Origin: an uncultured Pseudomonadota bacterium
GTDB taxonomy: Bacteria; Oederibacteriota; Muellerivitia; Muellerivitales; Muellerivitaceae
Assembly: GCA_963836235.1 (NCBI GenBank)
Contig: CAWIIP010000005.1
Span: 69,353 to 133,352 of the forward strand
Reading direction: 5' to 3'
Length of the DNA stretch: 64,000 bases
Below the pieces are notes generated by a model. That model had not been told where the DNA came from. It saw nothing but the letters and a program-made list of their open reading frames with translations, and made no database searches. Positions 29,683 through 64,000 of the stretch are shown piece by piece. Both the position numbers and the translations under genes were made by a program. How positions within the stretch are numbered: the stretch's first letter is position 1; every line of letters begins with the position of its first letter.

Positions 29683-29715
29683 AAACCCTCCAATGAGATT
29701 CCAAATTTAGACGTC
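29683..29715 (-). promoter_or_regulatory. Conserved 5' leader/RBS element shared with the paralog at 37589-37618
   Basis: The 30 nt directly upstream of the ATG (GTCTAAATTTGGAATCTCATTGGAGGGTTT, minus strand) match the leader of the NHL paralog at 37589-37618 (GTCTAAGTTTGGGATCTCATCGGAGGGTTT) at 27 of 30 positions. Sequence further upstream and the first ~30 codons are unrelated. Confidence 0.4.
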
Positions 29716-44836: not shown

Positions 44837-44935
44837 CTCCTTTAAATTTCAGCCATTGGCGGTCAGCGGGTGGCTGGCAGCTTGTTTATCTTTCATATTT
44901 TGCTGACAGCCATCGGCTGCCGGCTAAAAGCCGGT

Positions 44936-45208: not shown

Positions 45209-45329
45209 TGGACTCCCCTTTGATCCTTCATTCTCCTACCCCCAAAAGAAGAGGGGGCGCCATCTTGTCTTTCATAAAAGGGTTGAACTTCAACCCGAAA
45301 ACGAGAAAGAAGATGGCATGTCCCCTGTT

Positions 45330-46181
45330 TCATTGCCCACTTCCCAGCGGGAGAACAGGGGGCGCACTCAGTGTCGGCCAAAAAGCCAGCATGAGAGCGA
45401 ATAAAACCGCGGCGTAAAACATTTGGCTGGGGCTGATCTTGCGGTGCAGGGCAAAGGTAAAAAGCCCTACAATCGCGGTAAAAAAAGTCAGCTTGAGAAT
45501 GAACAACCCCACTTCTTTTTCCAATACCGACAAGTTGACGAAAACAATCAAAACACCCAAAAGCAGGATGGAAGCCAGCTTTAAACCCCGAATCGCTTCC
45601 TGAAAACCATACTTTCGGAGGGTCAAAACCACCTGGTCGCTATGGCGATACCCTTGCAGGAATCCCATGAGCCGGATGCCCACATGGGCGATATTGAAAA
45701 CCGCCAGGAAGAGGAGCGGGATAATCCAATATTGCCCCTTGATCTGAAACGCGTGGGACAAAACCAGCGTCACCGCGATCAACCCGCAATAAGGGCGGAT
45801 GGTGGCCCAAAAAAGGTTGTCCCCCATGGCCGCGATAGGGCCCATCATTCCAATTTTTAGCGCGCTGATCTCGTCCTCTTTCTGCTTTTGCTTGTTTCTG
45901 GGCTCCTTCTGTTTGTCCTCTTCCATTCGAAGGATAGCCCCCAACACGAAGGAAGCCATGTAAGGATGGGTATTGAAATACTCCATGTGCCGGGTCATGG
46001 CCTGGGCCCTCTCCTCGCGCGAAGTGTAAATTTTTCTCAAGACCGGCATCAAGACAAAGGTTACCCCATAGCTCAAATAACGCTCGAAATTCCAAACCAC
46101 CTGGAGAAAAAAGACCCTCCAAAAACAATGGGCCAAGTCAAAGACCGTAACCCGGGCCGCGGGCTTCTCGTCGGGGGTCAA
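45330..46181 (-). CDS. PTS mannose/fructose/sorbose-family IID component
   Basis: EIID signature HMEYFNTHPYMASFVLGAILRMEE. 283 aa. Confidence 0.8.
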   Translation of the reverse strand: MTPDEKPAARVTVFDLAHCFWRVFFLQVVWNFERYLSYGVTFVLMPVLRKIYTSREERAQAMTRHMEYFNTHPYMASFVLGAILRMEEDKQKEPRNKQKQKEDEISALKIGMMGPIAAMGDNLFWATIRPYCGLIAVTLVLSHAFQIKGQYWIIPLLFLAVFNIAHVGIRLMGFLQGYRHSDQVVLTLRKYGFQEAIRGLKLASILLLGVLIVFVNLSVLEKEVGLFILKLTFFTAIVGLFTFALHRKISPSQMFYAAVLFALMLAFWPTLSAPPVLPLGSGQ

Positions 46182-46957
46182 GCGGGTTCCCCTTTCCCCA
46201 CGTAAAACAAGGTGAGGATAAACCCCGCGAAGAGGGCAATGGCGACGAGGTAAACTCCCGGCAAGGGCGACAAGACCGCCAGGGTCATCATGGACACAAT
46301 GGACAGGATCAAATAGATGGCGGTCTTTTTTTCAACCAAGAGGTCGATGACCGCCGAGCACCCTAGGGCCAAGAGAAGCCAATGGGCATAGTAAAAACCT
46401 TCTATGACCTTGCCATCCAAAAGGCTGCCTAAAAGCGTATAAAACCCGGCGCTGAAATGGGCGATGGTCAGGCAAGCCGCCGACACGAGGAACCCTTTCA
46501 ATAGTTGTTCCATCAACACGAAAAAGTTAATCCACTCAAATGTTTTTAAATGGGAGCTGAAGGCCATCCGCTGCGCGAAATGGAGCCACCGGACATGGAA
46601 CTTACGTAGGGCCACTTCGACCTCCGTGCTCAAAACCGCCAGGGGGATCGCGATTCCCAAAGCATAGGTCATGACGGCTTCGGGGCTTTGGCCTTTTACC
46701 AACCCACAGGCCAGGGCGACGGCGGTGCCCGTTAACATCGTCAGGTCCAGGGGTAAATGGGCGCCCACCGGCAAATCACCGATCCAAATGAGTTCTATCA
46801 AAGCCCCCATTTCCAATCCGATGTCGGCCCGTCCAATAAGCCAGCCCACCACCGGGCCGGTCACAATAGGCCTTGAAACCATAAACTGGCCGACCGCCGT
46901 CTCGTCTAAACTTAAAAAGGCCATCACGAGCGCGATGGAAAACCAGTGATCCATCAT
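46178..46957 (-). CDS. PTS mannose-family IIC component
   Basis: 259 aa with 6-7 TM helices. It lies between the IIB/GH57 genes and IID and overlaps both neighbours by 4 nt. Confidence 0.7.
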   Translation of the reverse strand: MMDHWFSIALVMAFLSLDETAVGQFMVSRPIVTGPVVGWLIGRADIGLEMGALIELIWIGDLPVGAHLPLDLTMLTGTAVALACGLVKGQSPEAVMTYALGIAIPLAVLSTEVEVALRKFHVRWLHFAQRMAFSSHLKTFEWINFFVLMEQLLKGFLVSAACLTIAHFSAGFYTLLGSLLDGKVIEGFYYAHWLLLALGCSAVIDLLVEKKTAIYLILSIVSMMTLAVLSPLPGVYLVAIALFAGFILTLFYVGKGEPA

Positions 46958-49119: not shown

Positions 49120-49129
49120 TTTAGACCTC

Positions 49130-49624
49130 TCACTGACCGCTGTTCTTCAACTGATGAATGTATTTTTCCAATGATTCTTTGACATCACCTGGCACCGCTC
49201 GCACTTCCAGTTCCACTCCCTGCCTTTTTAGTTCTTTAAAGGACTCAATATCAGCTTCATGAACGCAAACCGTTTTACTAACTTGTTGTTTCCCCTCACA
49301 AAAATGCATCCCCCCAACATTCACCGCCGATAAGGCCCCACCCCTCTTGCCAAACTCCACCACATCCGAAGGATTAGAAAAAAGAAGGAGGCTACGATCC
49401 TTGGAATCCCCCTTGCGACAGTTTTGGGCCGCCTCTTCCACGGTATAAAAACTCACCTTTAACCCCGAGGGAACCGCCATCTCCATGAGGGTCTTTTGCA
49501 TCGAATTTTTGGCAATAACGTCATTTACCACGACCAGACGCTCAATTCCCAGGGCCTTAACCCAACCCACAACCACTTGCCCATGTATAAGCCGGTCATC
49601 AATTCGAATCAGTTGGATTTCCAT
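49130..49624 (-). CDS. PTS mannose/sorbose-family IIB component
   Basis: IRIDDRLIHGQVVVGW contains the phosphorylatable His of EIIB-Man. Confidence 0.8.
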   Translation of the reverse strand: MEIQLIRIDDRLIHGQVVVGWVKALGIERLVVVNDVIAKNSMQKTLMEMAVPSGLKVSFYTVEEAAQNCRKGDSKDRSLLLFSNPSDVVEFGKRGGALSAVNVGGMHFCEGKQQVSKTVCVHEADIESFKELKRQGVELEVRAVPGDVKESLEKYIHQLKNSGQ

Positions 49625-49650
49625 TCGGCCTCTCGAATCCAGAGTTAGCC

Positions 49651-50052
49651 CTATTTTTTAAGGAGTTCTAACGACGTCACAATACTTTCTCGGGTCGCGC
49701 TTTGAATCTCCGGAATCAACCGGTTCATTTCGGCTTCATCCCGACTCGAAACGACCTTGATCAGCATCGGCAGGTTCACTCCAGTCACAATCTGAAGTTT
49801 ACGGGTTTGAGCCAACCGAAGAGCCACATTAAAAGGCGTGCCACCCAGCATATCCACCAATACCAGCGTCCCCGTTCCCATTGGATCCACGGTTTCAAGA
49901 GCTTTCTCCATTTTAACCTGGAAAGACTCCATAGAATCCTGTGAAATTAGATCGATCGCCAAAATGGCTTCCGTTTCACCCAAAATCATTCGGAGGGTGG
50001 AAAGAAGGGCGAGGCCGAGTTCCCCGTGGGTTGCCACAATCACGCCTATCAT
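49651..50052 (-). CDS. PTS mannose-family IIA component
   Basis: MIGVIVATHGELG contains the EIIA-Man active-site His. 133 aa. Confidence 0.75.
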   Translation of the reverse strand: MIGVIVATHGELGLALLSTLRMILGETEAILAIDLISQDSMESFQVKMEKALETVDPMGTGTLVLVDMLGGTPFNVALRLAQTRKLQIVTGVNLPMLIKVVSSRDEAEMNRLIPEIQSATRESIVTSLELLKK

Positions 50053-50400
50053 TAAAAATCTCCTTTAAAATCGCCAAAAGGTTTTTTGAGTCTGTTTCAA
50101 TAGTCCGAAGATGCTTTTTTTCACCAAGAGATTAAAAGGAACCCCCGGCATTATCAACTTAATGTTCCCGGGAATGGGGATATAACCGAGAAATCCCAGC
50201 GGAGAGCCAGAAAAATCAGAGTAAATACATGGTTTTCAATAATAAAAATCGACTGCTTGTTACTTTTTGGGCACTGAAATTGAAAAAAGCGGAAACCTCT
50301 CCACGTTGACATTCACCATTTCAATGGACAATCTTATGAAGGAAAGCATTTCTTGGCGCCTGTTAAAGATAAAGCTGCTCAGGTATCGTTCGAACATTAA

Positions 50401-51672
50401 TTACATTACCAGCCTTCGGACAATGGCTTTTCCCAGCTTTTCCGGGCTATGCCGCACGTAATCTTCCTGATGGAGTAAATTCACTTGTATTAATTCAACA
50501 TCAAGAGCCTTAACTGCTTCTTCATCCACCACAACGGGCTTCTGTCCATTAGCTTCGTAACGGGCCAATAGTTGCGCGGGAACCTTTTCCTTGTTAGCGA
50601 TGACGTAGTGGATAAACCCAGGACTGGTGTGCTTGAGGATGGCTTTCACGTGGTCAGAAACGGTAAGGTTATCCGTTTCTCCCGGTTGTGTCATGACATT
50701 ACAAACATACATTTTCACCGCGCGGGCCAGGGCGATCGTTTCGGCCACTTCCGGAATCAAAAGATTCGGAAGAATGCTGGTATAAAGACTACCCGGCCCA
50801 AAGACAATGGCGTCCGCTTCCAATATGGCCTTCAAAACATCTTTGTTGGGGCGGATTTTTTTTTCTTTTAGCATAATCCGGTCAATAGGGGATTTTCCGT
50901 TTGGAATCCGGGATTCCCCAGTAATAATTTTTCCATTTTTCAGCTTGGCCTGGAGCGTCATATTCTCGAAAGTGACGGGCATGACGGTGCCCCGGGTCGC
51001 CAATACACGGCTGGATTCCTCCACGGCCCTGCCAAAATCACCCGTGATTTCCTTCATAACTGTAATAAAAAGATTTCCAAAACTATGGCCCTTCAGGTCG
51101 CCGTGGCCCTTGAACCGATATTGGAAAAGATCTTTGAGGAGGGTTTCCTGGTCGGATAAAGCAACAATGCAATTGCGGATGTCCCCCGGAGGCGGGGTTC
51201 CAAAATCCCTTCTGAGCCTACCCGAACTTCCGCCGTCATCGGCGACCGTCACAACCGCGGTAAGGTTGCTGGTGTAGTGTTTGAGGCTGGAAAGGACATT
51301 GGGAAGCCCCGTACCCCCGCCCACCGCCACAATCCGGGGCCCGCGCTTGAGGCGTGTTCGCTGATAGGCGATATTGATGAATTCCTTCTCCCTCGCAGGA
51401 GCGTAAACCGTGAGTACCGAAAAGATCAAACGCCTTATACCCAAAATCAGCCCCCAAAAAGCCAGGAGCATGAAAAGAAAATCGACGAACTTGAGGTGTT
51501 TGAGGTGATCTTCCAGTTCGACAATTACCGGTGGGCGCAAATGGATACCCCCCGTATGTTGACTCATGACGCCTGAGAATCCGACGTAAAGGACAATCAT
51601 CGAGAGGACAATGAGAAAAATCCAGCGTTTGAGACGCAAACCAGGATAGAGCCAGGGGAAACTCAACATCAA
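50401..51672 (-). CDS. YvcK/CofD-like (UPF0052) gluconeogenesis-factor family protein with N-terminal TM extension
   Basis: VAVGGGTGLPNVLSSLK ... VVTVADDGGSSGRLRRDFG ... GDIRNCIVAL are YvcK family motifs. The first ~90 aa carry two TM helices. It overlaps hprK by 4 nt. Confidence 0.8.
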   Translation of the reverse strand: MMLSFPWLYPGLRLKRWIFLIVLSMIVLYVGFSGVMSQHTGGIHLRPPVIVELEDHLKHLKFVDFLFMLLAFWGLILGIRRLIFSVLTVYAPAREKEFINIAYQRTRLKRGPRIVAVGGGTGLPNVLSSLKHYTSNLTAVVTVADDGGSSGRLRRDFGTPPPGDIRNCIVALSDQETLLKDLFQYRFKGHGDLKGHSFGNLFITVMKEITGDFGRAVEESSRVLATRGTVMPVTFENMTLQAKLKNGKIITGESRIPNGKSPIDRIMLKEKKIRPNKDVLKAILEADAIVFGPGSLYTSILPNLLIPEVAETIALARAVKMYVCNVMTQPGETDNLTVSDHVKAILKHTSPGFIHYVIANKEKVPAQLLARYEANGQKPVVVDEEAVKALDVELIQVNLLHQEDYVRHSPEKLGKAIVRRLVM

Positions 51673-52640
51673 ATTTTGCCCTTGAGTTTGGGAGAATTGC
51701 GCCTGGCCGTTTCCTCCGCCATCATACGGGAAACTCGGTCGGCAAACTCCTGGGCAGTGAAGTAACCCAGTTTCATCAGGCGGTGGTTCATGGCCGCTAC
51801 TTCGATGATCACCGCCAGGTTCCGGCCCGGCCTCACCGGAATAAGGAACATGGGAATTTCCACGTCAAAAATCTTGTGCGTGGCGGGCGTCAAGCCCAGC
51901 CGGTCGTATTCCTTTTTATTGTCCCATTCTTCTAACCGGATAATCAGTTCGATACGTTTTTTGTCGCGAATCGCTCCCACACCAAAGAGACTTTCAATAT
52001 TAATGATCCCCAAGCCTCTTATCTCCATGTGATGCTTGATGATTTCAGACCGGGAACCCATCAATATCCGGTTGGCCAGCCGCTTGATGTAAACCAGGTC
52101 GTCCGCCACCAGCCGGTGGCCACGTTCTACCAGATCCAAGGCGCACTCACTTTTCCCGATGCCCGAGTTTCCCAAAATAAGTATCCCCACTCCATAGACA
52201 TCCAAAAGCGTCCCATGGATGGTCGTTTCAGGGGCGAATTCCTCCTCAAGGAAAACCGAAATTTCAGAAACAAACTTGGTCGTGGGCGTAACAGTCGAGA
52301 AAAGGGGGATTTTCCGCGCCTCGGCCTCGGAAACCAAATCTGTGGGCGGTTTCATTTTGTGGGTCACTACGATGCAGGGAAGCCGATGGGACAATAGGGT
52401 CTTCAATATTTTTTTACGCTGGGTTGGTTTTAGCGTTCGAAGGAAATGGATTTCGGTTTTCCCCAAAATCTGGAGGCGTTCGTAAGGAAACCACTTGAGG
52501 TACCCGGTCAGGGCCATTCCCATCCGGTTGATGTCCACACTGACGATAAACCGATCGGACATTCCCGCTTCGGCCACGGGGGAAAGATGGAGCCGTTCCT
52601 TGGCCTGTTGAAAAAAAGACTCCACGGAAATTTTCTTCAT
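51669..52640 (-). CDS. hprK: HPr kinase/phosphorylase
   Basis: P-loop GILILGNSGIGKSECALDL and the HprK C-terminal signature. 323 aa. Confidence 0.9.
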   Translation of the reverse strand: MKKISVESFFQQAKERLHLSPVAEAGMSDRFIVSVDINRMGMALTGYLKWFPYERLQILGKTEIHFLRTLKPTQRKKILKTLLSHRLPCIVVTHKMKPPTDLVSEAEARKIPLFSTVTPTTKFVSEISVFLEEEFAPETTIHGTLLDVYGVGILILGNSGIGKSECALDLVERGHRLVADDLVYIKRLANRILMGSRSEIIKHHMEIRGLGIINIESLFGVGAIRDKKRIELIIRLEEWDNKKEYDRLGLTPATHKIFDVEIPMFLIPVRPGRNLAVIIEVAAMNHRLMKLGYFTAQEFADRVSRMMAEETARRNSPKLKGKI

Positions 52641-52680
52641 GGTCCCCGTCGCTTTGGCTTTTTCCCTGCCGGGAAGCCGG

Positions 52681-53145
52681 TCAATGCTTAAGTTTTTCTT
52701 CTTCTTGGATGATTTTGACCACGTCCTCGGGGGTTTTCGCCGAGAGGAGCGACTTGCGGAAATATTTATCTTTTAAGAGGCTGGAAATACGGGCCAAGGC
52801 TTTCAAGTGGGCCCCCGCAGCTCCTTCCGGGGCCACCAGCAGGAAAAAAATATTCACAGGCTCACCATCCAATGAGTCAAAGCTGATCCCGTCGACAGAA
52901 AGCCCGAAAGCCGCCGCCAAATCCGAAACGGTATCCGACTTTCCATGGGGAATGGCTATTCCCTGGCCAATTCCTGTGGAGCCAAGCTCTTCACGCTCCA
53001 TGAGTGTCTGAAGCATTTTCTTTTTGTCCTTCACTTTGCCCGTTTTGACCAAAAGTTCCACCATCTCTTTAATGGCGTCTTTCTTGTTTTTGGATTCCAG
53101 GGACATCTTGATGGCGTCAGCCGTTAAAAAATCCAATATCTGCAT
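52681..53145 (-). CDS. ptsN: PTS IIA-like nitrogen-regulatory protein (EIIA-Ntr, fructose/mannitol-type IIA)
   Basis: 154 aa. GIAIPHGKSD contains the phospho-His. It lies directly downstream of hpf, as in the rpoN operon. Confidence 0.8.
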   Translation of the reverse strand: MQILDFLTADAIKMSLESKNKKDAIKEMVELLVKTGKVKDKKKMLQTLMEREELGSTGIGQGIAIPHGKSDTVSDLAAAFGLSVDGISFDSLDGEPVNIFFLLVAPEGAAGAHLKALARISSLLKDKYFRKSLLSAKTPEDVVKIIQEEEKLKH

Positions 53146-53202
53146 GAAACTTCCTCCCGAAAAGCCAGTTGATAACTTTCAGCCGCAACTAAAACCCGCC
53201 GT

Positions 53203-53742
53203 TCAATATTCCGGCTCAATCAGACCGATATGATGATCCTTCCGCTTGTAAACCACTCCCGTTCGTTCGGTCTCGGCATTCGAAAAAACCAAAAACTCAT
53301 CTTTGGAAGAAGCCAATTGTAAAGCTGCTTCCTCAATCGTCATGGGCTTCACTGCGTATTTTTTAGTTCGTAAAACCTTGACTCCATCTCCTTCCATCGA
53401 TGCCGGAACAAGTCCAAAAGGTTTCGAACTCATGGCTTTAGGATGTTCGGGTCGATGATGTTCCGCTCGTTTGTCTTTTTGCTTGTGCGCCTGCTTCTCC
53501 AATCTTTGCAGCGCCACGTCAATGGATTGATACATATCGTGGGAGGAAGCCTTGGCGCTTAATTTCAAGCCCTTTGCGCTCAAGGTTACTTCGCAAATAT
53601 GCAACTTCCTCTCAAAGTTCAATACCACATGAGCTTCTTTGATTTTTCCCAAGTATCTTTCCACTCGCTGAATCTTGTCCTCAATGTGGATTCTTAATCC
53701 ATCGGTGAGTTGCTCATGGCGGCTGGTAATATGAATTTTCAT
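53203..53742 (-). CDS. hpf: Ribosome hibernation-promoting factor, long form
   Basis: MKIHITSRHEQLTDGLRIHIEDKIQRVERYL matches the RaiA/HPF fold N-terminus. The C-terminal extension is typical of long HPF. Confidence 0.85.
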   Translation of the reverse strand: MKIHITSRHEQLTDGLRIHIEDKIQRVERYLGKIKEAHVVLNFERKLHICEVTLSAKGLKLSAKASSHDMYQSIDVALQRLEKQAHKQKDKRAEHHRPEHPKAMSSKPFGLVPASMEGDGVKVLRTKKYAVKPMTIEEAALQLASSKDEFLVFSNAETERTGVVYKRKDHHIGLIEPEY

Positions 53743-53931
53743 TATTTTTCCTATTGGATAAAAAAGACCGGATTTCTTCAGCCCTATTCGGGCGGAAAAA
53801 CCCTATAAAAGAATTGTCATTCTAACACTCGAAAACCGGAAGTCAATCCGCACTCGGTTTTCATAACATTGGACAGCCAGAAGTTCCAAGAGGAATCACT
53901 TTGTCTCCAAATAGAATGTTCAATTGATTTG

Positions 53932-55461
53932 TCACAATTTTCGCCGTTGGGAAGCCGAAGGAATCTTGAGTTCTTCACGGTATTTGGCGATGGTACGGCG
54001 AGCGATACTGAGTCCCTGGTCGTTTAAGACTTGCATGATCTTTTGATCCGAAAAGGGTTTTTGAGGGGATTCCTGAGAAACCAGTTCCTTTATCTTTTCC
54101 TTGACCGACAAAGAAGACACATCCAAACCGTCCACCGATTCTAACCCGCTGGTGAAAAAATATTTTAATTCAAATAATCCCCGAGGAGTCTGAACGTACT
54201 TGTGGGTGGTCACCCGACTGACCGTGGATTCATGCATGCCGATGATGTCGGCAACTTGCTTTAACGTCAGGGGCTTTAAAACACTGATTCCAATTTCAAG
54301 AAAATCCCTTTGAATGCGGAAAATGGCTTCCGTAACCCGGAAGATGGTTTTACGCCGTTGCTCGATATTCTTGATCAGCCAAATAGCGGATTGAATCTTA
54401 TTTTCCAAAAACTTTTTGGTTTCTTTCCCCTCAAGAGCTTTTTTGTCCTTCATTAGCCTTCGGTAATAAGGCGAAATCCGAAGTTTTGGCACCGGTTCGT
54501 CGTTCAAAACCACAACGTACTCCCCGTCCATTTTACGAATGTACACATCCGGCGTGATGTACTTAGTCTCATTCTCCTGAAAGGACCTTCCCGGCTTCGG
54601 CTCCAGCGTTGCGATAAAAGTCAAAATTTCCCTTAATTGTTCATCGGTGCAACCCAAGGCTTTGGTAATAGCGGGATATTTTCTCTTTTCCATTTCCTCG
54701 AAATGGTCATGCACCACTTGGTAGGATTTGCGGGCCGTTTCTCCAGTTTTATTTTCCAATTGGAGCAAAAGACACTCCCTTAAATTTCGCGCACCCACCC
54801 CCGCCGGCTCAAAGGTCTGGATCAACCCCAAAATCCTCTCTATCTCTAGGGGTGATACTTCTTGTGATGTCGCGATATCCTCCACCTTGTCCGTTAAATA
54901 CCCGTTATCGTCCAAGTTTCCGATGATGACTTTACCAAGGATCTTTTCCTGATCATCCTTGGCAACCAGCAGTAACTGCCATTCCAAGCTTTCAGAGAGA
55001 GTCTGAGAACGGGTGATGGAAGCTTCAATAAAATCCCGTTTTTCTTGGTCGGTTTGGGAACTCTCCCTGCCGCCATATTCGGTGTCGTTGGATTCCCCAT
55101 ATTCCTCCGACTCTCTGTAAAGATTCCAGGTGTCGTCGCTGAATCGATCGCCATCCTTTAAATGCTCCACCAAGTCAGTCTGATGACGGTCGCGAGCCAA
55201 TTCCAAAAGTTTGTCGGAATCAGGATTGGATTGTTCTGCGGGAGGAGCATCTAATGGTTCGGTAGGAGAAGCTTTATCAATGGTCTCAACTGGAGTTTCT
55301 TCATTTTCTTCCTCCAAGGTGGGGTTCTCCAGCATTTCCTTTTCCACCCATTCCTTCAATTCCAGAGTGGAAAGTTGAAGGATCTTCATGGCTTGTTGCA
55401 GCATCGGAGTCATAATCATCCGTTGCTGCATCTTTTGGTTCATTCCGAACTGCTGCCGCAT
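53932..55461 (-). CDS. rpoN: RNA polymerase sigma-54 factor
   Basis: N-terminal Gln/Leu-rich region I, core-binding domain, HTH, and the C-terminal RpoN box ARRTIAKYRE. Confidence 0.9.
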   Translation of the reverse strand: MRQQFGMNQKMQQRMIMTPMLQQAMKILQLSTLELKEWVEKEMLENPTLEEENEETPVETIDKASPTEPLDAPPAEQSNPDSDKLLELARDRHQTDLVEHLKDGDRFSDDTWNLYRESEEYGESNDTEYGGRESSQTDQEKRDFIEASITRSQTLSESLEWQLLLVAKDDQEKILGKVIIGNLDDNGYLTDKVEDIATSQEVSPLEIERILGLIQTFEPAGVGARNLRECLLLQLENKTGETARKSYQVVHDHFEEMEKRKYPAITKALGCTDEQLREILTFIATLEPKPGRSFQENETKYITPDVYIRKMDGEYVVVLNDEPVPKLRISPYYRRLMKDKKALEGKETKKFLENKIQSAIWLIKNIEQRRKTIFRVTEAIFRIQRDFLEIGISVLKPLTLKQVADIIGMHESTVSRVTTHKYVQTPRGLFELKYFFTSGLESVDGLDVSSLSVKEKIKELVSQESPQKPFSDQKIMQVLNDQGLSIARRTIAKYREELKIPSASQRRKL

Positions 55462-55585
55462 AACTCATGCCACCTAAAGAAGAATGTCTTGAGCAAGAAT
55501 TATACCTTTTTATGGTTTAGAGGTACCCATTAAAAGGATCAAGTTCCAGGCAGTATAGACAATCAAAACAACTGAAGAAATTCGC

Positions 55586-55906
55586 TTAACGAATCCACAA
55601 AAGGTATACCAAGAAGTTTAGGGATAAAACCAAGATCGCCCCATAAAGAACACCCTTGGCGACATACGGTTGATTTTTTTTCCTAAAAAAAAGAAAACAG
55701 GGGATGACATAAACCCACTGGCTTAATCCACAAAATCCCAGGACAAGCATGGGGAAAGTCGCCCAATCGTTGGTAGGGCCATTAGGGCCCCAATCCGCCC
55801 AAGTGTCAAAAATAGCGAAGGCAAAAAGAAACAAAGCAAAAAGAACGGCAAGAACAATCCCCATACCTTCAAATACCTGATAGCGCCGGGAAGATTCCTC
55901 AACCAT
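55586..55906 (-). CDS. Small integral membrane protein (3 TM), function unknown
   Basis: Start chosen at the internal ATG 55906, preceded by a GGGGGAGGAG RBS and beginning just past the upstream gene's stop at 55899. The ORF-track start at 55987 would overlap the amidohydrolase gene by 89 nt. Confidence 0.4.
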   Translation of the reverse strand: MVEESSRRYQVFEGMGIVLAVLFALFLFAFAIFDTWADWGPNGPTNDWATFPMLVLGFCGLSQWVYVIPCFLFFRKKNQPYVAKGVLYGAILVLSLNFLVYLLWIR

Positions 55907-57257
55907 TTTTCTCCTCCCCCGAACTTTCCTGCCAACCCTTTTTGAATTTTGTCTTTTCCCATTGACGAATCCAAAAATCCAAGTCAAAAGGTTGGGGAAA
56001 CTCCAGTTCCCCCGCCGGATAAGGGCGTCCCCCTTTAAGAACCAGTTTTAATGTCCGGAAATACTGCGGGTCTTTTAATGGATCGTGTTGATAAAGAGCC
56101 AAATCGGCGAATTTCCCTTTTTCAACCGTACCTAGTTTCTCTTCCATTCCCAATAGTTTCGCCGCGTCCCGAGTGGCCATTTTCAAACACTGGAAAGGAG
56201 TCAACCCCGTGGATTGCAAATCTTTCCATTCTTTTACGGAAACGCCAAAAGGCATGTGGGGATTCCCCGCGTCCGTTCCGTAAGCTACTTGGCCTCCGAG
56301 ACTCAAGAACCTCTCCAGGTTTTTTTGGCATTGGTGGTGCCCCGCCCTAAACCCATGCTGGCAATACTGACCGAAAGGATGATCAGCCCGGCGTTTCCAC
56401 TCTTCCGCCCAACCCGCATGGGCGTGAAGTGTCGGAATGATCACGACTTTCCTTTTAATGGCTTCCTTCCAAAGATCATCGGAAACGGGGCGGGCTGGAA
56501 TGTGTGCCACTTCATTAACACCACTTTTCACGCAAACTTCAAAATCATCCTCATTGGTGATGTGGGCGGTAACCCGTTTGGAATGAGTGTGGGCCGCGGT
56601 CACGATGGCCGAAACCTCTGTCTCCGAAAGACAAGCGCCCAACTCATGTTCCATCCCCAGTTTAATAATATCCACACCCATTCCAATCAATTTTTTAACT
56701 TTATCCTGAGATTGGTAGCGCCCCTGGACGGGTGCCGAAACTTTGGGACCCCAAACGTTTTCAGGATAACCTTTGGGACAGGTTAAAACAGGCCCGGAAA
56801 TAAAAATTCGCGGCGCGGCAATGAGCCCCGATTGCTCCTTGGCCTTCCAAGCGAGCGCGTCAAAGATATCACTGGCAAGATCCCTGACGCTGGTAACACC
56901 ATTCTTTAAAAAACTCGATAGAGTTTTTTCGTCCACGAGGCCGTGGACATGCAGGTCAATTAAACCCGGAAGAACAAAAAGTCCACGACCATCAATGACT
57001 TCCACCGCCTGATAGGCCGGGGCTTTGGAATGGTTCCCGGCATATATTATTTTTTCCCCCGATACGAGGATGGTGGAATTCGCGGCAGCCTTATCTTTGG
57101 CGCCGTCATAGAGAGTCACATTTTCAATTGCGGTGTTAATTTGAAGCATAGAACCCCAAAATCCATCCATGGATTTGTGCGGACAAGTCAAACAATCAAC
57201 ATCATTTTCATTCGGAGCGAGAAGGCTTTGGCCAAAGAAAGTCGGAGTCCCTATCAT
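55899..57257 (-). CDS. Amidohydrolase-family metal-dependent hydrolase
   Basis: VIDGRGLFVLPGLIDLHVHG carries the HxH metal ligands. AYGTDAGNP carries the distal Asp. The N-terminal ~45 aa may be a signal sequence or an over-extension. Confidence 0.7.
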   Translation of the reverse strand: MIGTPTFFGQSLLAPNENDVDCLTCPHKSMDGFWGSMLQINTAIENVTLYDGAKDKAAANSTILVSGEKIIYAGNHSKAPAYQAVEVIDGRGLFVLPGLIDLHVHGLVDEKTLSSFLKNGVTSVRDLASDIFDALAWKAKEQSGLIAAPRIFISGPVLTCPKGYPENVWGPKVSAPVQGRYQSQDKVKKLIGMGVDIIKLGMEHELGACLSETEVSAIVTAAHTHSKRVTAHITNEDDFEVCVKSGVNEVAHIPARPVSDDLWKEAIKRKVVIIPTLHAHAGWAEEWKRRADHPFGQYCQHGFRAGHHQCQKNLERFLSLGGQVAYGTDAGNPHMPFGVSVKEWKDLQSTGLTPFQCLKMATRDAAKLLGMEEKLGTVEKGKFADLALYQHDPLKDPQYFRTLKLVLKGGRPYPAGELEFPQPFDLDFWIRQWEKTKFKKGWQESSGEEKNG

Positions 57258-57277
57258 TAATCCATTTTGATCCGTGG

Positions 57278-58159
57278 CTATGGTTGTGGTTTTTCAAAAA
57301 TTCCATTTAACAAATAAGCCAGCCTAACTCCAGCCTTTTCCAACTGATCGTCCACGATCAAACGCATCTTACCCGAATAGTAGTCTTCCGGCAGATCCTT
57401 TCCCCACCGATTCCGTTCTAAAAGCTGACCTTCGGGAAGTTCCTTGTAAATCTTGTTTTGGGCCGTAAGAAAACTTTCATAGGCCCAATCAGATGCCTTT
57501 CCTTGGGCCCAATTTTTCTCATCCCCTGGTTTGATTTCCTTCTCTAACCGGGAAGCAAGCCAGCGTGGGTTTTCATTGGCTTTAGGCTGAAGAAGATTGT
57601 CCCAAAAACTGTGGAATTCGATCCAGGAATAATGACGTGAACGTCCACGGGAACCATGATACCGAAACCATTTATCGTTTCCGCCGCGATCATGATCATC
57701 CGAGCAATGAAGAGGCTGATGAATATCCCCCATGAAATGGACAAGGAACTTCAGCGCTTCTTTCTTATCCCTGGGCGAGGCAAAAGGTTCCCGGAGGACC
57801 ACTAGATCTTTCTCGATTTGGTCAACGACACAATCATGGTGGGGACAAACATCAGAAATGTCATATTCGCTCTGGTCTTGGCGAACATCCAGGTTGAAAA
57901 AATGCCACGACGCGGTTTCAGGCCTCGCTCTCACAATAGCATCCGCCCAGGTGGAAACGCTCACCAAATCCTCTTCTGGCCCCAGAATTCCCGCCACCGC
58001 TCTTTGGGTGTCGAGAGTCAATCGGTCCTGGGCGATATAAGCCACAGTCTGGTGCCCCACACGCCCCCAGGCCCCAACTCGGGACGCGATCGGCATAATC
58101 ACAGCCGCAATCAAAGAGATATTCAAGCATGCTTTAACCCGCAATAGAATTTCTCCCAA
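57278..58159 (-). CDS. S1/P1-family nuclease (secreted)
   Basis: The mature N-terminus WGRVGHQTVAYIA matches S1-P1 nuclease Zn-ligand Trp/His. Conserved HFMGDIHQPLH and a signal peptide are present. Confidence 0.7.
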   Translation of the reverse strand: MGEILLRVKACLNISLIAAVIMPIASRVGAWGRVGHQTVAYIAQDRLTLDTQRAVAGILGPEEDLVSVSTWADAIVRARPETASWHFFNLDVRQDQSEYDISDVCPHHDCVVDQIEKDLVVLREPFASPRDKKEALKFLVHFMGDIHQPLHCSDDHDRGGNDKWFRYHGSRGRSRHYSWIEFHSFWDNLLQPKANENPRWLASRLEKEIKPGDEKNWAQGKASDWAYESFLTAQNKIYKELPEGQLLERNRWGKDLPEDYYSGKMRLIVDDQLEKAGVRLAYLLNGIFEKPQP

Positions 58160-58211
58160 ATAAAAAAGCCCGGGATTTTTCCCGGGCTTTGAGAATTAAG
58201 TTCGCTTTTTC

Positions 58212-59312
58212 TTACCGCGCCTTTACAGGCTCCCCGGCTTTGGCGTACTTGGCGATAAAAGTTTCCACCAACTCATGGGCCTCTGCGTCCGAATATTGGA
58301 CCGGAGGTGTTTTAAAGAAATAAGAAGACGGACCTTCTAAGGAGCCCGCCAATTTCGAATCCAATGCCAATTTACAGCAACGGATGGCATCAATACCGAC
58401 TCCGGCGCTATTGGGAGAATCCCATACTTCTAATTTCAATTCGATCGTCACGGGTACATTCCCAAATTCCCTACCTTCCAAACGGATATGGGCCCATTTG
58501 CGGTCCTGCAACCAAGGAACATAATCCGAAGGGCCTATATAAATGTTGTCCGGATCAATGGGATGGGATAATTGACTGACCACGGCGCCGGTCTTGGAGA
58601 TTTTCTTAGATTCCAACCGTTCTCGTTCCAACATATTCTTGAAATCCATATTTCCACCGAAATTCAATTGGGACGTGCGGTCCAAAGTGACGCCCCGATC
58701 AGAAAACATCTTGGCTAGTATTCGATGGGTGATGGTGGCGCCAACTTGGGCCTTGATATCGTCGCCTAAGATCGGCAGGCCCGCTTGCTCGAATTTCTTA
58801 GCCCAAGCGGGATTGGAGGCGATAAAAACCGGCATGCAGTTGACTACCCCGACTCCCGCCTTTATGGCTTCATTCATATAAAACTTCGTGGCTTCCTCAC
58901 TCCCCACTGGAAGGTAATTGATAAGGACATCGGTTTTAGTTTCTTTGAGGATTTGGGCAATGTCGGCTGGCTTTTCAGCGGATTCCGTGACGACTTCCCG
59001 GTAATACTTGCCAAGACCATCATAAGTATGGCCGCGATAAACCTTGATACCCAGCTTGGGAACATCACAAAACTTGATAGTATTATTGATGGGAGTAAAA
59101 ATGGCCTCTCCCAAGTCTTTGCCGACTTTGTTGGAGTCCACGTCGAAGGCGCAGGAAAACTCGATGTCACCCACGTGGTATTTGCCCAAACGCACGTGCA
59201 TCAGCCCTGGGACAAACCCCTCTTCTTCGGCGTTTTGATAAAAACGGACACCCTGAACCAAAGAAGAAGCGCAACAGCCAACGCCCACGACCGCAACCCG
59301 AATTTTAGCCAT
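58212..59312 (-). CDS. myo-Inositol-1-phosphate synthase (bacterial/archaeal short type)
   Basis: [21 protein letters not shown] is the NAD-binding Rossmann start typical of MIPS. 366 aa. Confidence 0.8.
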
Positions 59313-59344
59313 AACCTCAGGAACCTCCCGACAAGATGACAGCT

Positions 59345-59896
59345 TTACCTGCTTTTAACATTCTGCGTTTTAGTCCAGACCCAATGTACCCGTTGGGCCA
59401 CTGTCACCAAGGACAATATTCCTACGACTTCCAGGGCCAATATCGGTTTGGCGAAAAAAAAACCGAGCGCCAGCAGGATGACTCTTCCTGGCCGGGGTAA
59501 CCACCCGACCTCGCAATCAATGCCAAGCCCTTCCGCCCGAGCCCTTGTATAGGAAACCAACAGGGACAATATACAGACGCCAAAAGCCAATAAAAAAACC
59601 TGAGGATTCTGGTGTTGGTAATAATACAATAGAAATCCGCCAAAAACGACCGCTTCCGACACCCGGTCCAAAGTGGAATCCCAAAACGCCCCAAAAAGCT
59701 TCGGTTGCCCGTTATTCCGGGCTAAAGATCCATCAAGGACATCAAAGAATCCGGCCCCCAAAAGCCAAAGCCCCGAGGGGATCCATCTTTCCTTTAAAAA
59801 CTCAACGGGCACCATGAAGGTCACCAAAGCCCCAGTAAAAGTCACCGTATTCGGTCCTATATGCATGGCGCTTAATACCCCACAAAAGGGTTTCAA
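59345..59896 (-). CDS. CDP-alcohol phosphatidyltransferase (candidate phosphatidylinositol-phosphate synthase)
   Basis: CDP-OH_P_transf motif [30 protein letters not shown] (D-x2-DG-x2-AR...G-x3-D-x3-D). 183 aa with 5-6 TM helices. It is adjacent to MIPS. Confidence 0.75.
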
Positions 59897-59965
59897 AGTA
59901 TTGTCAATCCATGTTTTAAGCCGACTTTTCTTTTTGGAAGGTCTCTTGATAAAAATCTCCTGGAA

Positions 59966-60703
59966 CTACTTCAGCGAAAACCGTTCGCCCAAGTAAATCT
60001 CGCGGGCTTTCTTGTTGGACGCCAATTTTGCTGCCGTACCCGAAAGAAGGATTTTTCCCTCGAACATGATATAGGCCCGGTCCACGATAGAAAGGGTTTC
60101 CCGAACATTGTGGTCCGTAATGAGGATTCCGATTTTCTTTTTCTTAAGAAAACGAATGATGACTTGGATATCCTGAACGGCGATGGGGTCGATACCCACA
60201 AAAGGTTCATCCAAAAGGATAAAATTAGGTTGGAGTACCAGGGCCCTGGCAATTTCCACCCGCCGCCTCTCCCCTCCCGACAAGGTATAGGCTTTTTGTT
60301 TGGATAGATGGGAAACTTTCAGCTCCTCCAATAACTCCTGTTTCCTTTTCTCTCGGTCTACTTTTGAGAGAGGTGTCAATTCGAGAATCGCCATTAGGTT
60401 CTCTTCCACCGAGAGCTTTCGGAAAATAGAAGCTTCCTGGGGAAGATAAGCGATCCCCATCCTAGCTCGTTTGTACATGGGCATATGGGTAATGTCATGG
60501 GCTTGGCCCTCTTCCTCAAAAAAAACCAGGCCAGCGTCGGGAGCGATAAACCCAGTTGTCATATAAAAAGTAGTGGTCTTTCCGGCTCCGTTGGGTCCCA
60601 AAAGCCCGACGACTTCTCCTTGGTGGACTTCGATCGATACGTGATCCACCACTTTTTTCTTGGAATAAAGTTTCACTAGATTTTGAGTCCGAAGAATTTT
60701 CAC
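59966..60703 (-). CDS. lptB: LPS export ABC transporter ATP-binding protein
   Basis: Walker [13 protein letters not shown] signature [15 protein letters not shown], Walker B ILLDEP. It sits adjacent to lptA/lptC-like genes and rpoN. Confidence 0.85.
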
Positions 60704-60747
60704 CGGTACGGCCTCACGTTCATTTTTCAGGCTTTAGATAACATACT

Positions 60748-61698
60748 TCAAAACCCACCCGGATGCTGGGGTGAACCAGTATTATTCGGCATAATGGCAT
60801 TATTACCTAAACCGTTGGGATTCGTCATCGGGGCCGAAGGACTAGTAACCGTACTGGGACCAGAAGTCCCGGAAGTCGGGCTTCCGCCAAGCCCGGCTTT
60901 TTTATCCGTTTGAGTAGTCACAGGCTTTCCGTTGGGATTGAAAATAGCGTCGGCCATTCCTTCCACAAAAACGCTCCTATCTCCTCCCATAGTGGTAACA
61001 ATCCGCCGACCTGACAAAAGGCCATTTTCGGCATAAACCTTCGGATCATCTTCCAGGACGAACTTATCGTCTTGCGAAAGAAAAGTCGCCTTTTGGGCCT
61101 CCGCATGCCCGTCTTTATGAAGGATTTGGATATTTTGGTTGATAACCACCGTCTTTTTCTTGGAATCCACCTCCATTTGCCGCCCAGTAACCGTAACGGG
61201 ACTCCCGTTTTCATCCAAAGTGGTTAAAACCGGATGGTCGTGGGCCGTCATCAAATTCATAAGATCTTGGTATTCCAAATTCCCGCAAGTAAGAGTGATG
61301 CCCTGGCTCGAATCCACCACATAGACATGGCCGTTGGCGGTGGCCTCCCGATTATCTTCCATTGCATGGATCTCGTCGGATATCAGGACAATCTTGTCAT
61401 GTATAGCTTTCACATTGCCCGAAAAAAGGGTAAGCCCCTTGGGCTTGTCGAACATGAGCCGGTGGGATGAAATATTAACCGGTTTTTTGGACGAAATTTG
61501 CTGGTCTTTTTCAACTTCAAAAGCCGAAAGAAAAACAGCGGTCCCAAAAAAAGTCGCTATAAACGTAAATAAAAACCAAGTCTTGGAAAACGATGCGATT
61601 TTTTCAAAAAGGGCACAACGAACTAACCGATAGAATAGTATCGCCGTCCCTGATTCACGATCAGGTATCAAAATTTTTATTTTCTGTTTTAAAATCAT
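60748..61698 (-). CDS. LptA/OstA-N-like periplasmic LPS transport protein with Ser/Thr/Pro-rich C-terminal tail
   Basis: Hydrophobic N-terminus, then a beta-jellyroll-like OstA-N repeat region (HAMEDNREATANGHVYVVDS...ITLTCGNLEY...). Assigned by position between lptC and lptB. The true start is probably internal. Confidence 0.55.
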   Translation of the reverse strand: MILKQKIKILIPDRESGTAILFYRLVRCALFEKIASFSKTWFLFTFIATFFGTAVFLSAFEVEKDQQISSKKPVNISSHRLMFDKPKGLTLFSGNVKAIHDKIVLISDEIHAMEDNREATANGHVYVVDSSQGITLTCGNLEYQDLMNLMTAHDHPVLTTLDENGSPVTVTGRQMEVDSKKKTVVINQNIQILHKDGHAEAQKATFLSQDDKFVLEDDPKVYAENGLLSGRRIVTTMGGDRSVFVEGMADAIFNPNGKPVTTQTDKKAGLGGSPTSGTSGPSTVTSPSAPMTNPNGLGNNAIMPNNTGSPQHPGGF

Positions 61699-61712
61699 TT
61701 TAACCGTATTTT

Positions 61713-62375
61713 CTAAAAAGGTTTGGCTTTTGAAAAATCCTGGATCTCCTGCATATCCCTCACTTGAGTCCTTACGTCTTTATTAAAGCGGATGTTATTG
61801 AGTTGCGTATCGGCAACCAATCCAACGGCAGTGATATCGTCCATCCCCTTAAAAACATGGACCAATCCATCAGTTTTGATCTGGTCCGTATCCGGATCCC
61901 AGTTGAGCTTGTCGGTCTCCAGCTTCGATCCATTTTCCACGATCAATTCCACATGGCCTTCGGCTTGAGTGGCGTTAGTCTCCGTATTCACAATGGCGCT
62001 GTCGGCAGTCAGGGTTGAGACTAACTTATCCTTTTTATAGTACTGGGCATAAACATTGTCTGAGTAGGCTTGTTTTTGATTTTGGTACATCCTGGCCACA
62101 TCAGAAAACAACTCCCACCGCTTTTGACCTTGCACGGTGGAAACCAAGTGGAATTTTTCAATCGTGGCATCGGGAGAATTCGCCCCCTCGAACACTGTTT
62201 CAGGATTTGTGGGCGAGGGATCATTTTTGACCAATCCTAACGCCAAAATAACCATGGTCATAACCGCCGCCCCTAAAAGCCAAAAATACCTTTTAAGGCG
62301 GACAGATCGGGGTTCTTCCTCGGGGACTTCCGTAATAGGTTCCAAAGGAACTGAAAGATTTTTATTTTTCGGCAT
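61713..62375 (-). CDS. LptC-like membrane-anchored LPS transport protein
   Basis: Single N-terminal TM helix (YFWLLGAAVMTMVILALGL), then an ~180-aa periplasmic beta-rich domain. Assigned by its position upstream of the lptA-like gene. Confidence 0.55.
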   Translation of the reverse strand: MPKNKNLSVPLEPITEVPEEEPRSVRLKRYFWLLGAAVMTMVILALGLVKNDPSPTNPETVFEGANSPDATIEKFHLVSTVQGQKRWELFSDVARMYQNQKQAYSDNVYAQYYKKDKLVSTLTADSAIVNTETNATQAEGHVELIVENGSKLETDKLNWDPDTDQIKTDGLVHVFKGMDDITAVGLVADTQLNNIRFNKDVRTQVRDMQEIQDFSKAKPF

Positions 62376-62476
62376 TTACCAGCCCCTGTTCACAATTCAA
62401 TACTTCTTCCATAATTTGGACGCGCCCATCGGCAAAGGCGGGCTTATCCCGAGCGGAACCCCAAGTATACTCCTGA

Positions 62477-63445
62477 TCAAAAGGGCCAATCATCCTTCTT
62501 AGGCTTGGTTTTCCAACGTTCGTGCATCCACATCCATTGGTCGGGATAGGCCCGGACATAGGATTCAATGACTTCGGTATAGCTTTGGACGATTTCCAGA
62601 ATATCTTTTTCCTTATTTATCGTTTGGGGAACTTCTATTTCTTTTTCCACGAGAAGCTCATACTTCCCATCCTTTCCTCGAACCGCAAAGGCCGGCACCA
62701 AGGCAGCCCCGGTCTTTCGGGCGATCCGGGCTACCCCCGATTGGGTCCAAGCCAGTTTCCCAAAAAAAGGGACGAAGACACCCTCGTTCCCTGTGTCCTG
62801 GTCGCACAGAGCCAGGATAAACTGTTTTTCTTTTAACGCGTCCAAAATACCCCTCAAGGCCAATCCCCTCTTGATCATCAATGTGGCGCCCAACTTCTCG
62901 CTGCGAAACCAATTCACCAGATCGTCAAACCGCGGGTCATAAAGACTTTGGGCCAGCGCCGATCCCTTGCCTTGGGTGCCCAAATACCCCCCCAATAACT
63001 CCCAATTGCCCAAATGGGCGGTCACGACGAAAAGACCCTTGCCGCGCTTTAAGGCTTCTTCGAAATGTTCCAGCCCTTGAACCCGGACAACCTGGGACAC
63101 AATTTCCTCCCGGGTCCAATTCAATTGTCGAATGATCTCGAAAAGATTTTGACCCACCCGCGCCCACACGGCTTTTGCCAATTGCTTTTTTTCCATCTCT
63201 TTTAGTTGGGTAGGATAAGCCGTAGAAATGCTTTCAAGGGTTTTGCGCCTTTCATCTTCCGAAAAGGCAAAAACCAAGTTTCCAAATATCTTTCCCAAAA
63301 CGCTAACCCACTGCTCAGGCAAAAACAAAAGGATGGCGATAATCAGTTGAGCGGAGTAATAAATCAGGTGATTTTTGAATTTTTTCATATCATTTTTCTC
63401 TTCCCAACCGCTAAATGAATCACGTTTGGAAAACAACCAATTCAA
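62477..63445 (-). CDS. Lipid A biosynthesis lauroyl/myristoyl acyltransferase family (LpxL/HtrB-like)
   Basis: N-terminal TM helix. Acyltransferase HX4D-type motif VVTAHLGNWELLG. 322 aa. Confidence 0.7.
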   Translation of the reverse strand: MNWLFSKRDSFSGWEEKNDMKKFKNHLIYYSAQLIIAILLFLPEQWVSVLGKIFGNLVFAFSEDERRKTLESISTAYPTQLKEMEKKQLAKAVWARVGQNLFEIIRQLNWTREEIVSQVVRVQGLEHFEEALKRGKGLFVVTAHLGNWELLGGYLGTQGKGSALAQSLYDPRFDDLVNWFRSEKLGATLMIKRGLALRGILDALKEKQFILALCDQDTGNEGVFVPFFGKLAWTQSGVARIARKTGAALVPAFAVRGKDGKYELLVEKEIEVPQTINKEKDILEIVQSYTEVIESYVRAYPDQWMWMHERWKTKPKKDDWPF

Positions 63446-63473
63446 ATGGGTGGTTTAAATTGGACAAAAACCC

Positions 63474-64000
63474 TTAGATAAAAAGACTGTTCGCAGAGGA
63501 AGCTTTCTGGCTATTGGCCCGGTGAAAAAGTCTGACGGTTTGATTCCACCGACCCTGGGCCTTCAATATTTTTTCCACCACTTCCCGGAAAGCTCCTCCC
63601 CCCGCGGGAGTCCGCGTGACGTAATGAACGGCTTTTTTCACCTCAGAACGGCCATAAGGTACGGTAGCGGACCACCCCACTTGGGTTAAAAGGGGCAGAT
63701 CGATTAAGTCATCCCCCATATAAGCCACCTGGGAAAGTTTCAACCCAAGCTTTTGGCAGAGATTTTGGGCGACGGTCAGTTTGTCCAGCTTACCCTGATA
63801 AAGGAAGGGAACCTTCAAGTGCTTAGCGCGCTTTTCCACCGGTTTGGAAAGTCGTCCCGAGAGCCAGCCTACGGGAAGATTTCCATAGGCTGCCAAGCGA
63901 TGGCCAATACCATCTTGGATGTCAAACCCGACAAATTCTTCCTTGACGCCCAGGCAAACTTTTCCATCGGTTAATATCCCGTCGACATCTGTCAAAAGCA
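63474..64000 (-). CDS. kdsC: 3-deoxy-D-manno-octulosonate 8-phosphate phosphatase (HAD superfamily), 5' end beyond window
   Basis: DVDGILTDGKV is HAD motif I and YMGDDLIDLP is motif III, as in KdsC. The frame stays open to the window end, so the N-terminus is probably truncated. Confidence 0.8.
   Translation of the reverse strand, partial: LLTDVDGILTDGKVCLGVKEEFVGFDIQDGIGHRLAAYGNLPVGWLSGRLSKPVEKRAKHLKVPFLYQGKLDKLTVAQNLCQKLGLKLSQVAYMGDDLIDLPLLTQVGWSATVPYGRSEVKKAVHYVTRTPAGGGAFREVVEKILKAQGRWNQTVRLFHRANSQKASSANSLFI

Follow-up and report, generated by a model that had tools for sequence, protein, structure and literature searches.

Predicted phosphatidylinositol synthesis genes at the 3′ end of the LPS-transport gene string in candidate phylum FCPU426, with an apparent AUC start codon

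The subject of this study is a pair of genes of predicted inositol-phospholipid synthesis lying directly behind the lipopolysaccharide (LPS) transport gene lptB on contig CAWIIP010000005.1 of an uncultured bacterium, within the 64 kb of DNA that were analysed as one stretch (the window). Five minus-strand open reading frames (ORFs) separate lptB (59966-60703), encoding the LPS-transport ABC ATPase (Pfam ABC_tran, 1e-33), from rpoN (53932-55461), the sigma-54 gene, in which all three sigma-54 domains were found by Pfam; all features given coordinates in this paragraph lie on the minus strand. The first of the five, directly downstream of lptB, encodes a CDP-alcohol phosphatidyltransferase (PT) of the phosphatidylinositol phosphate (PIP) and archaetidylinositol phosphate (AIP) synthase type (59345-59950 when read from the start proposed below; Pfam CDP-OH_P_transf, PF01066, 9e-14). 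It is followed after 32 nt by the gene of a 366-aa synthase of myo-inositol-1-phosphate (MIPS; also inositol-3-phosphate synthase; 58212-59312; Pfam Inos-1-P_synth, PF01658, 3e-36), and 21 nt past the MIPS stop stands an intrinsic-terminator-like hairpin (58165-58190) with an 11-bp stem containing 7 G-C pairs, a 4-nt loop and a T-run. The three remaining ORFs encode a secreted S1/P1-type zinc nuclease, an amidohydrolase-superfamily metallohydrolase and a small membrane protein. Upstream of lptB, a same-strand string of kdsC (63474-63995), an lpxL-like gene, lptC and lptA occupies 60748-63995 with gaps of 14-101 nt, its members being identified by Pfam, which also confirmed the LptC and LptA flanks; 3′ of rpoN follow hpf, ptsN, hprK, a CofD/YvcK-like gene and a mannose-type phosphotransferase system (PTS). 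The original prediction, that five genes interrupt the arrangement lptC-lptA-lptB-rpoN, agrees with this ORF layout and with the Pfam identities of the genes and their flanks. Rfam gave no RNA family for 53000-64000, and a sigma-70 promoter scan returned fewer sites than shuffled sequence and none between lptB and PT.

The subfamily of PT was assigned from NCBIfam model scores, matches in the PDB and the ranking of folds by Foldseek. PT scored 130 bits with the AIP synthase model and 122 bits with the PIP synthase model, a difference of 8 bits that is not meaningful, and 102 bits with the Bacteroides BT_1523-type PIP synthase model (NF052561), whereas the models of DIPP synthase, phosphatidylcholine synthase (Pcs), PgsA and PssA gave only 32, 28, 25 and 23 bits, respectively. 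The PgsA-type match fails against cut-offs of 109-304 bits. The strongest PDB sequence matches were Mycobacterium tuberculosis PgsA1 (6H53, 1.6e-19) and the PIP synthases of Renibacterium and M. kansasii, other matches not being strong. An AlphaFold model of PT built on 44 homologues (pLDDT 92.6) has a juxtamembrane helix at residues 10-28 with the membrane helices after it, and this predicted fold of six transmembrane helices and an N-terminal juxtamembrane helix agrees with that of solved PIP synthases. In the Foldseek search with this model the top 14 matches were all PIP synthases (TM-score 0.75-0.84), followed by AF2299 and IPCT-DIPPS, whereas PgsA and PSS reached only about 0.5, the PgsA structures 7DRJ and 7DRK with E-values of about 1e-2.

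The class I CDP-alcohol phosphotransferase signature is complete in PT (D70xxD73G74xxA77R78...G87xxxD91xxxD95; residue numbers refer to the 201-aa protein, and M. tuberculosis PgsA1 equivalents are taken from the alignment of the PDB match), and its eight positions are invariant in both homologue alignments. Mutagenesis has implicated S132, K135, R155 and R195 (PMC4634129) as well as R94, Y133 and R137 (PMC6506517) of M. tuberculosis PgsA1 in the binding of inositol phosphate. The counterparts in PT are S133, R136 (a change of Lys to Arg), R156 and R187 for the first group and R96, Y134 and R138 for the second, and they are invariant or at least 90% conserved among 28-44 homologues. Model scores, structure matches and binding residues support the placement of PT with the inositol-phosphate-using enzymes, apart from PgsA. 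Grouping with PgsA had been set beforehand as an outcome that would speak against the original prediction, and no such grouping was seen (25 bits against 130 and 122; TM-score about 0.5). Most close homologues of PT (P0005, P0008, P0009 and others) are named 'CDP-diacylglycerol--glycerol-3-phosphate 3-phosphatidyltransferase' (PgsA) by JGI, a name that very probably mislabels PIP-synthase-type enzymes in a systematic manner.

MIPS and M. tuberculosis Ino1 (PDB 1GR0) align from end to end (8e-143, 62% identity, residues 3-353), and the four conserved sequence blocks of MIPS are identical or nearly identical to those of Ino1. MIPS also aligns end to end with TIGR03450, at 550 bits under a cut-off of 638, and is 74-98% identical among relatives of the host. 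Judged by this alignment and conservation MIPS looks functional, and the loss of MIPS function that had been named as the other possible objection is not what was found. The proposal that MIPS and PT represent the enzyme families of mycobacterial PIP and archaeal AIP synthesis is borne out by the NCBIfam, PDB and residue-conservation data. With mycobacterial Ino1 and PgsA1 (6H53, 5D92, 6WM5) the pair shares both enzyme families, and PT shares the fold (TM-score about 0.8), the signature and the inositol-phosphate residues, but its structure-based identity to actinobacterial PIP synthases is only about 26-29%. Archaeal AIP synthase provides the best-scoring model and uses the same acceptor, inositol-1-phosphate; its donor, however, is CDP-archaeol, while the host of PT is bacterial with lipid A/LPS genes and PT scores under the cut-off of 180 bits. 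The IPCT/DIPP synthase of hyperthermophiles (4MND) is a member of the same superfamily with an inositol-phosphate acceptor, and MIPS often adjoins DIPP synthase. PT, in contrast, is a single domain of 183-201 aa that reaches 32 bits against a cut-off of 580, and in the fold ranking all PIP synthases and AF2299 stand ahead of IPCT/DIPP synthase, which came nineteenth. No NTP-transferase (cytidylyltransferase) gene is present between lptB and rpoN.

The genomes closest to the window are metagenome-assembled genomes of candidate division FCPU426, with a PT 77% identical to that of the window in the best species representative, and the host is a bacterium of this uncultured candidate phylum. Related loci of the FCPU426 type that reach upstream of PT number 18 (L001-L010, L084-L087 and L088-L091). 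A metagenome scan contributed only six loci. PT directly follows lptB in every one of the 18, and wherever the loci extend far enough the order is lptB-PT-MIPS-...-amidohydrolase-rpoN, with PT identity down to 45%. In all FCPU426 loci the gene flanked by lptA and PT shares 74-95% identity with the window lptB. It follows that the phylum inherited the lptB-PT-MIPS arrangement from its ancestor and did not acquire it by a recent insertion, a point on which the original prediction, which spoke of inserted genes, needs correction. In E. coli the order is kdsD-kdsC-lptC-lptA-lptB-rpoN-hpf-ptsN. The flanking gene order is alike in FCPU426, which differs in having lpxL before lptC and, between lptB and rpoN, PT-MIPS, a variable slot, the amidohydrolase gene and often the gene of the small membrane protein.

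The PT family, to which about 2,100 of 1.84 billion cluster representatives belong at E ≤ 1e-10, is found outside FCPU426 in Chloroflexota, Rubrobacteria, Gemmatimonadota, Nitrospirota, Nitrospinota, Zixibacteria, Ignavibacteria and others. In about 70 PT loci of these other phyla, MIPS is the commonest neighbour and lies within 6 kb of PT in 33, a GT4 glycosyltransferase is found in 29 and a PatA-like acyltransferase in 11, which is the neighbour pattern of the mycobacterial pgsA1-patA-pimA operon. PT adjoining lptB was not found in any of the PT loci outside FCPU426. The assumption that inositol phospholipids are rare in Gram-negative bacteria needs qualification: as genetic potential they are less rare than implied, the PT family being present, often by MIPS, in many diderm phyla. 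Bacteroidetes make inositol lipids, a class that is still considered comparatively rare among bacteria (PMC9246714), and PIP and AIP synthases have been reported to be widely distributed (Morii et al. 2014, as cited in PMC6506517). These observations support the view that the locus represents a new and divergent case of the known MIPS and PIP-synthase pathway and that its lpt-operon context is specific to one phylum.

The start of PT requires separate treatment. The PT frame is open from the lptB stop on (TAG, 59968-59966) and encodes FQEIFIKRPSKKKSRLKTWIDNT ahead of the first canonical start, TTG at 59896. Candidate starts are ATC at 59950-59948 (201 aa), this TTG (59345-59896, 183 aa) and ATG at 59866, which gives the 173-aa version held in the protein database (P0001). 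Alignment with homologues covers residues 7-18 of the extension, and the segment LK.WID within it is conserved also in those homologues with canonical starts further upstream. In the structural model this segment is the first half of the juxtamembrane helix, which would be complete only with translation from ATC. Between the upstream in-frame stop and LK.WID there is no ATG, GTG or TTG in the window or in L001, L084, L006, L088 and L091. In a comparison set of 12 species-level sequences (the window, L001, L005-L008, L084-L086, L088, L089 and L091) the aligned start position is ATC in seven and ATT in five. A Shine-Dalgarno-like motif stands 5-9 nt before it, reading GGAG or AGGAG except in L085, where it is weaker and AAGG-like; in the window it is GGAG (59957-59960), 6 nt upstream of the ATC. 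The distance from ATC/ATT to a conserved Trp (Phe in L086) is 14 codons in 10 of the 12. On deeper branches PT starts with ATG (L009, L010), GTG (L087) or TTG (L090).

Since the frame is open, the encoded peptide conserved, a canonical codon lacking and an aligned ATC/ATT present behind a Shine-Dalgarno motif, the most economical reading is that PT probably starts at the conserved AUC at 59950, 15 nt past the lptB stop, and is 201 aa long. The 32-nt gap between PT and MIPS given in the original prediction thus stands, while its 183-aa PT gives way to a probable 201 aa. If the AUC start holds, PT proteins in the databases, such as P0001 with its 173 aa, appear to be N-terminally truncated and to lack the juxtamembrane helix. 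Read-through of the lptB stop was also considered, PT being in frame with lptB in most loci, and was rejected: two stops intervene in L001 and three in L005 and L009, and in L006 and L007 the genes are out of frame. In E. coli near-cognate starts are confirmed only for infC and pcnB, both AUU, and initiation factor IF3 discriminates against such codons. PT resembles these two genes in the conserved AUU/AUC behind a strong Shine-Dalgarno sequence. It differs from them in that its product is a lipid-synthesis enzyme and AUC is about as frequent as AUU, and also in its position 15 nt past an upstream stop in the window, where coupling of termination and reinitiation may be possible. If true, an AUC/AUU start in 12 species-level sequences would be a candidate for a functionally maintained near-cognate start.

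A hairpin with T-run follows MIPS in nine of 12 loci (the window and eight of 11 relatives), with stems that differ in sequence, partly in a compensating manner. This terminator closes the PT-MIPS unit, and because of it the five genes are not a single unit but more than one.

From the enzyme families we infer substrates, products and final lipid as follows. MIPS would convert glucose-6-phosphate to 1L-myo-inositol-1-phosphate, PT is predicted to join inositol-1-phosphate and CDP-diacylglycerol to PIP and CMP, and a phosphatase encoded outside the window would convert PIP to phosphatidylinositol (PI), an anionic membrane lipid. PT and MIPS would form the 3′ end of a kdsD-kdsC-lpxL-lptC-lptA-lptB string, with 15 nt from the lptB stop to the putative PT start and a terminator behind MIPS, and this tight placement makes it most likely that PI synthesis would be co-transcribed with LPS transport. 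The near-cognate start would hold the translation of PT far under the level of MIPS, possibly tied to lptB translation or to IF3 levels; low PT synthesis that depends on lptB coupling or IF3 is plausible. We hold this whole explanation, the start of a PI pathway co-transcribed with the lpt genes and with PT initiated at AUC, to be likely.

Several points weigh against it. PT is under both NCBIfam equivalog cut-offs (130 bits against 180 for the AIP synthase, NF040950, and 122 against 170 for the PIP synthase, NF045883) and is therefore a divergent subfamily member and no certified orthologue, an equivalog cut-off being an annotation threshold and no biochemical feature. Whether the donor is CDP-diacylglycerol or another CDP-activated lipid is more than sequence can tell, and the archaeal model is slightly ahead. 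Among the scanned ORFs of 150 aa or more in the window no PgpA-like, PAP2, HAD or IMPase phosphatase was found, which leaves the final step without an enzyme, and the pathway could end with PIP. A canonical in-frame codon is present upstream of the ATC/ATT in L089, L007, L008, L085 and L086, and initiation at AUC or AUU in E. coli reaches only 1-2% of the AUG level (bioRxiv 10.1101/063800). Both co-transcription and AUC initiation are read from sequence alone.

As to the phosphatase, the mycobacterial pathway is alike in that the PIP phosphatase is not identifiable there, nor in the window: the mycobacterial enzyme is still unidentified (PMC4634129, PMC6506517), and a 2026 preprint proposes EphE (10.64898/2026.07.15.738315). 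The gene cluster BT_1522-BT_1526 of Bacteroides thetaiotaomicron (Heaver et al. 2022, PMC9246714) is alike in being Gram-negative with MIPS and PIP synthase clustered. Unlike that cluster, the pair described here is without a PgpA-like PIP phosphatase (BT_1525) or inositol-phosphoceramide synthase (BT_1522), and the window contains no sphingolipid pointers. A HAD hydrolase encoded after MIPS in L001 was considered as a general PIP phosphatase and rejected, as it occurs in one species only and has no tblastn match in the window.

The remainder of the window holds several groups of genes related to glycans. At 15266-35148 and 40712-42805 the minus strand encodes about seven membrane proteins of large size (700-1000 aa) that match PMT_2, YfhO or TMEM260-like (GT-C) families weakly. 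For two of the membrane proteins in this region (21115-23607 and 23611-26157) Pfam gave no match, and NHL-repeat proteins, S-adenosylmethionine methyltransferases and a fusion of a spermine-synthase-like and a membrane domain (30180-32414; sub-threshold MFS match) are also found. The two stretches are predicted to be a large periplasmic glycosylation island. On the plus strand, 7124-7828 encodes a 234-aa GT2 enzyme resembling polyprenyl-phosphate sugar synthases (AglJ, ArnC, DPM-like), which could supply lipid-linked sugar donors to the GT-C enzymes of the island, and 9197-10321 and 10213-11085 encode a GT9 heptosyltransferase-like protein and a second GT2. A 202-aa ORF at 38745-39353 (minus strand) matches only the C-terminal half of GH125 alpha-mannosidase (profile positions 227-407 of 414), and the 404-aa ORF beside it (39425-40639) has no family match; the fragment could be part of a truncated or frameshifted gene, or of one with a divergent N-terminal half. 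Downstream of rpoN, 43082-53145 (minus strand) holds a complete-looking PTS (ptsN EIIA-Ntr, HPr kinase, mannose-family EIIA, IIB, IIC and IID, and Enzyme I) with a GH57 alpha-amylase/glucanotransferase gene embedded among the PTS genes. FCPU426 loci share the order rpoN-hpf-ptsN-hprK-cofD.

One may ask whether the main role of PI is to anchor a glycolipid or lipoglycan, similar to phosphatidylinositol mannosides (PIM), lipomannan (LM) and lipoarabinomannan (LAM) or to glycosylphosphatidylinositol (GPI), whose glycan would be made by the GT2 and GT-C enzymes 15-50 kb away in the window. Such a role would fit the pgsA1-patA-pimA-like operons in which the PT family is mostly found outside FCPU426 (GT4 in 29 loci, PatA-like in 11), as well as the polyprenyl-phosphate-GT-like GT2, the roughly seven PMT_2/YfhO/TMEM260-like membrane proteins and the GH125 fragment of the window, and mycobacterial GT-C enzymes extend PIMs from polyprenol-phosphate-mannose (preprint 10.64898/2026.07.15.738315). 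Neither a PimA-like GT4 nor a PatA-like acyltransferase was found in the 64-kb window, however. The upstream Lip_A_acyltrans gene was considered as a PatA homologue and rejected, since its lpxL-like product scores as an LpxL (152 bits as lipid A lauroyl acyltransferase against 97 as PIM acyltransferase). Moreover, rpoN, hpf, the PTS genes and the GH57 gene stand between the island and PT-MIPS, no connection of the two was seen, and GT-C enzymes also act on proteins, LPS and teichoic acids. Compared with the mycobacterial pgsA1-patA-pimA operon, PT is here found in the lptCAB operon of an LPS-bearing diderm, with PimA and PatA missing from the window and with an apparent AUC/AUU start. We therefore regard a mainly anchoring role of PI as rather unlikely, and a PI-anchored glycoconjugate from the window island is conceivable at a low probability. 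The fuller scheme, in which PI from the lpt operon would anchor a PIM/LM- or GPI-like glycolipid with an island-built glycan while the PIP synthase is throttled by an lptB-coupled AUC/AUU start, is distinctly unlikely; if true, it would place an actinobacterial-style lipoglycan system beside LPS in an outer-membrane-bearing phylum.

The three genes between the terminator and rpoN (all minus strand) were examined for a part in the pathway. The nuclease gene (57278-58159) matches Pfam S1-P1_nuclease over the full profile (2e-57); its product has a signal peptide followed by the predicted mature N-terminus WGRVGH, and residue 1 of the PDB S1/P1 chain aligns to ORF residue 31. The amidohydrolase gene (55899-57149, 416 aa, in an ORF extending over 55899-57257; Pfam Amidohydro_1, 3e-24) belongs to the subgroup of Xaa-Pro dipeptidase, arginine carboxypeptidase and ochratoxinase, with 2QS8 and 3MTW as best PDB matches. 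The small Phe/Leu-rich membrane protein (55586-55906, 106 aa, in ORF 55586-55987) has no significant Pfam or NCBIfam match and has homologues at the same position in L001, L084, L087, L089 and L092; an 8-nt overlap of its start with the amidohydrolase stop may couple it translationally to the amidohydrolase. Comparison with relatives makes 57149 and 55906 the most likely starts of these two genes. In all FCPU426 loci long enough to show it, the amidohydrolase gene stands between MIPS and rpoN, whereas the slot after the terminator is variable. The S1/P1 nuclease is absent from L009, L010 and L091, and the slot may hold a HAD hydrolase (L001-L004, one species), a zinc alcohol dehydrogenase (L008), a HigBA-like toxin-antitoxin pair (L010), a 1321-aa cellulase with another ORF (L085) or, in some species, nothing. 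In the loci of other phyla none of the three genes was found beside PT or MIPS.

The possibility that one of these neighbours (the amidohydrolase, the S1/P1-like phosphoesterase or the small protein) completes the pathway, for example as the PIP phosphatase, and that the five genes form one module, draws on the constant position of the amidohydrolase, on the phosphomonoesterase activity of S1/P1 enzymes and on the fact that the PIP phosphatase is unidentified in mycobacteria as well. It is nevertheless quite improbable, as the conserved terminator parts MIPS from the three genes, the nuclease carries a signal peptide and is missing from three relatives, the amidohydrolase is of a peptidase/amidase subgroup, and the three genes do not accompany PT or MIPS outside the phylum while unrelated genes enter the same slot. 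A pathway function of the S1/P1-like protein, whether as phospholipase or as phosphatase, was rejected for its full-length nuclease match, its signal peptide and its absence in those relatives. The three genes between the terminator and rpoN make up a unit of their own, variable in part and without detectable inositol link. Of the five genes between lptB and rpoN, PT and MIPS alone are thus assigned to the inositol pathway, and the other three, by terminator and variable content, fall outside it.

Least probable of all, and very improbable, is that PT uses another donor or makes another product (as an AIP-synthase-like enzyme on an ether or isoprenoid CDP-lipid, as a DIPP synthase with the solute di-myo-inositol phosphate as product, or as an ordinary PgsA) while MIPS serves soluble inositol metabolism, since the slightly higher AIP score (130 against 122 bits, a meaningless difference) and the JGI PgsA labels are set against the absence of an IPCT domain or gene nearby, 32 bits with the DIPP-synthase model, 25 bits and a fold TM-score of about 0.5 for PgsA, a normal LPS toolkit (kdsC, lpxL, lptCAB; kdsD in relatives) and no archaeal-type lipid pointers in the window.

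The explanation that we prefer, a PI pathway begun by MIPS and PT within the lpt operon, leaves existing knowledge of how these enzymes work unchanged. Its consequence lies in the biology of the phylum: a whole uncultured soil and peat phylum is predicted to make inositol phospholipids, expressed together with its LPS-transport machinery. This would provide a concrete hypothesis of a lipid biomarker for FCPU426, together with a natural example of PI synthesis that is genetically linked to outer-membrane biogenesis.

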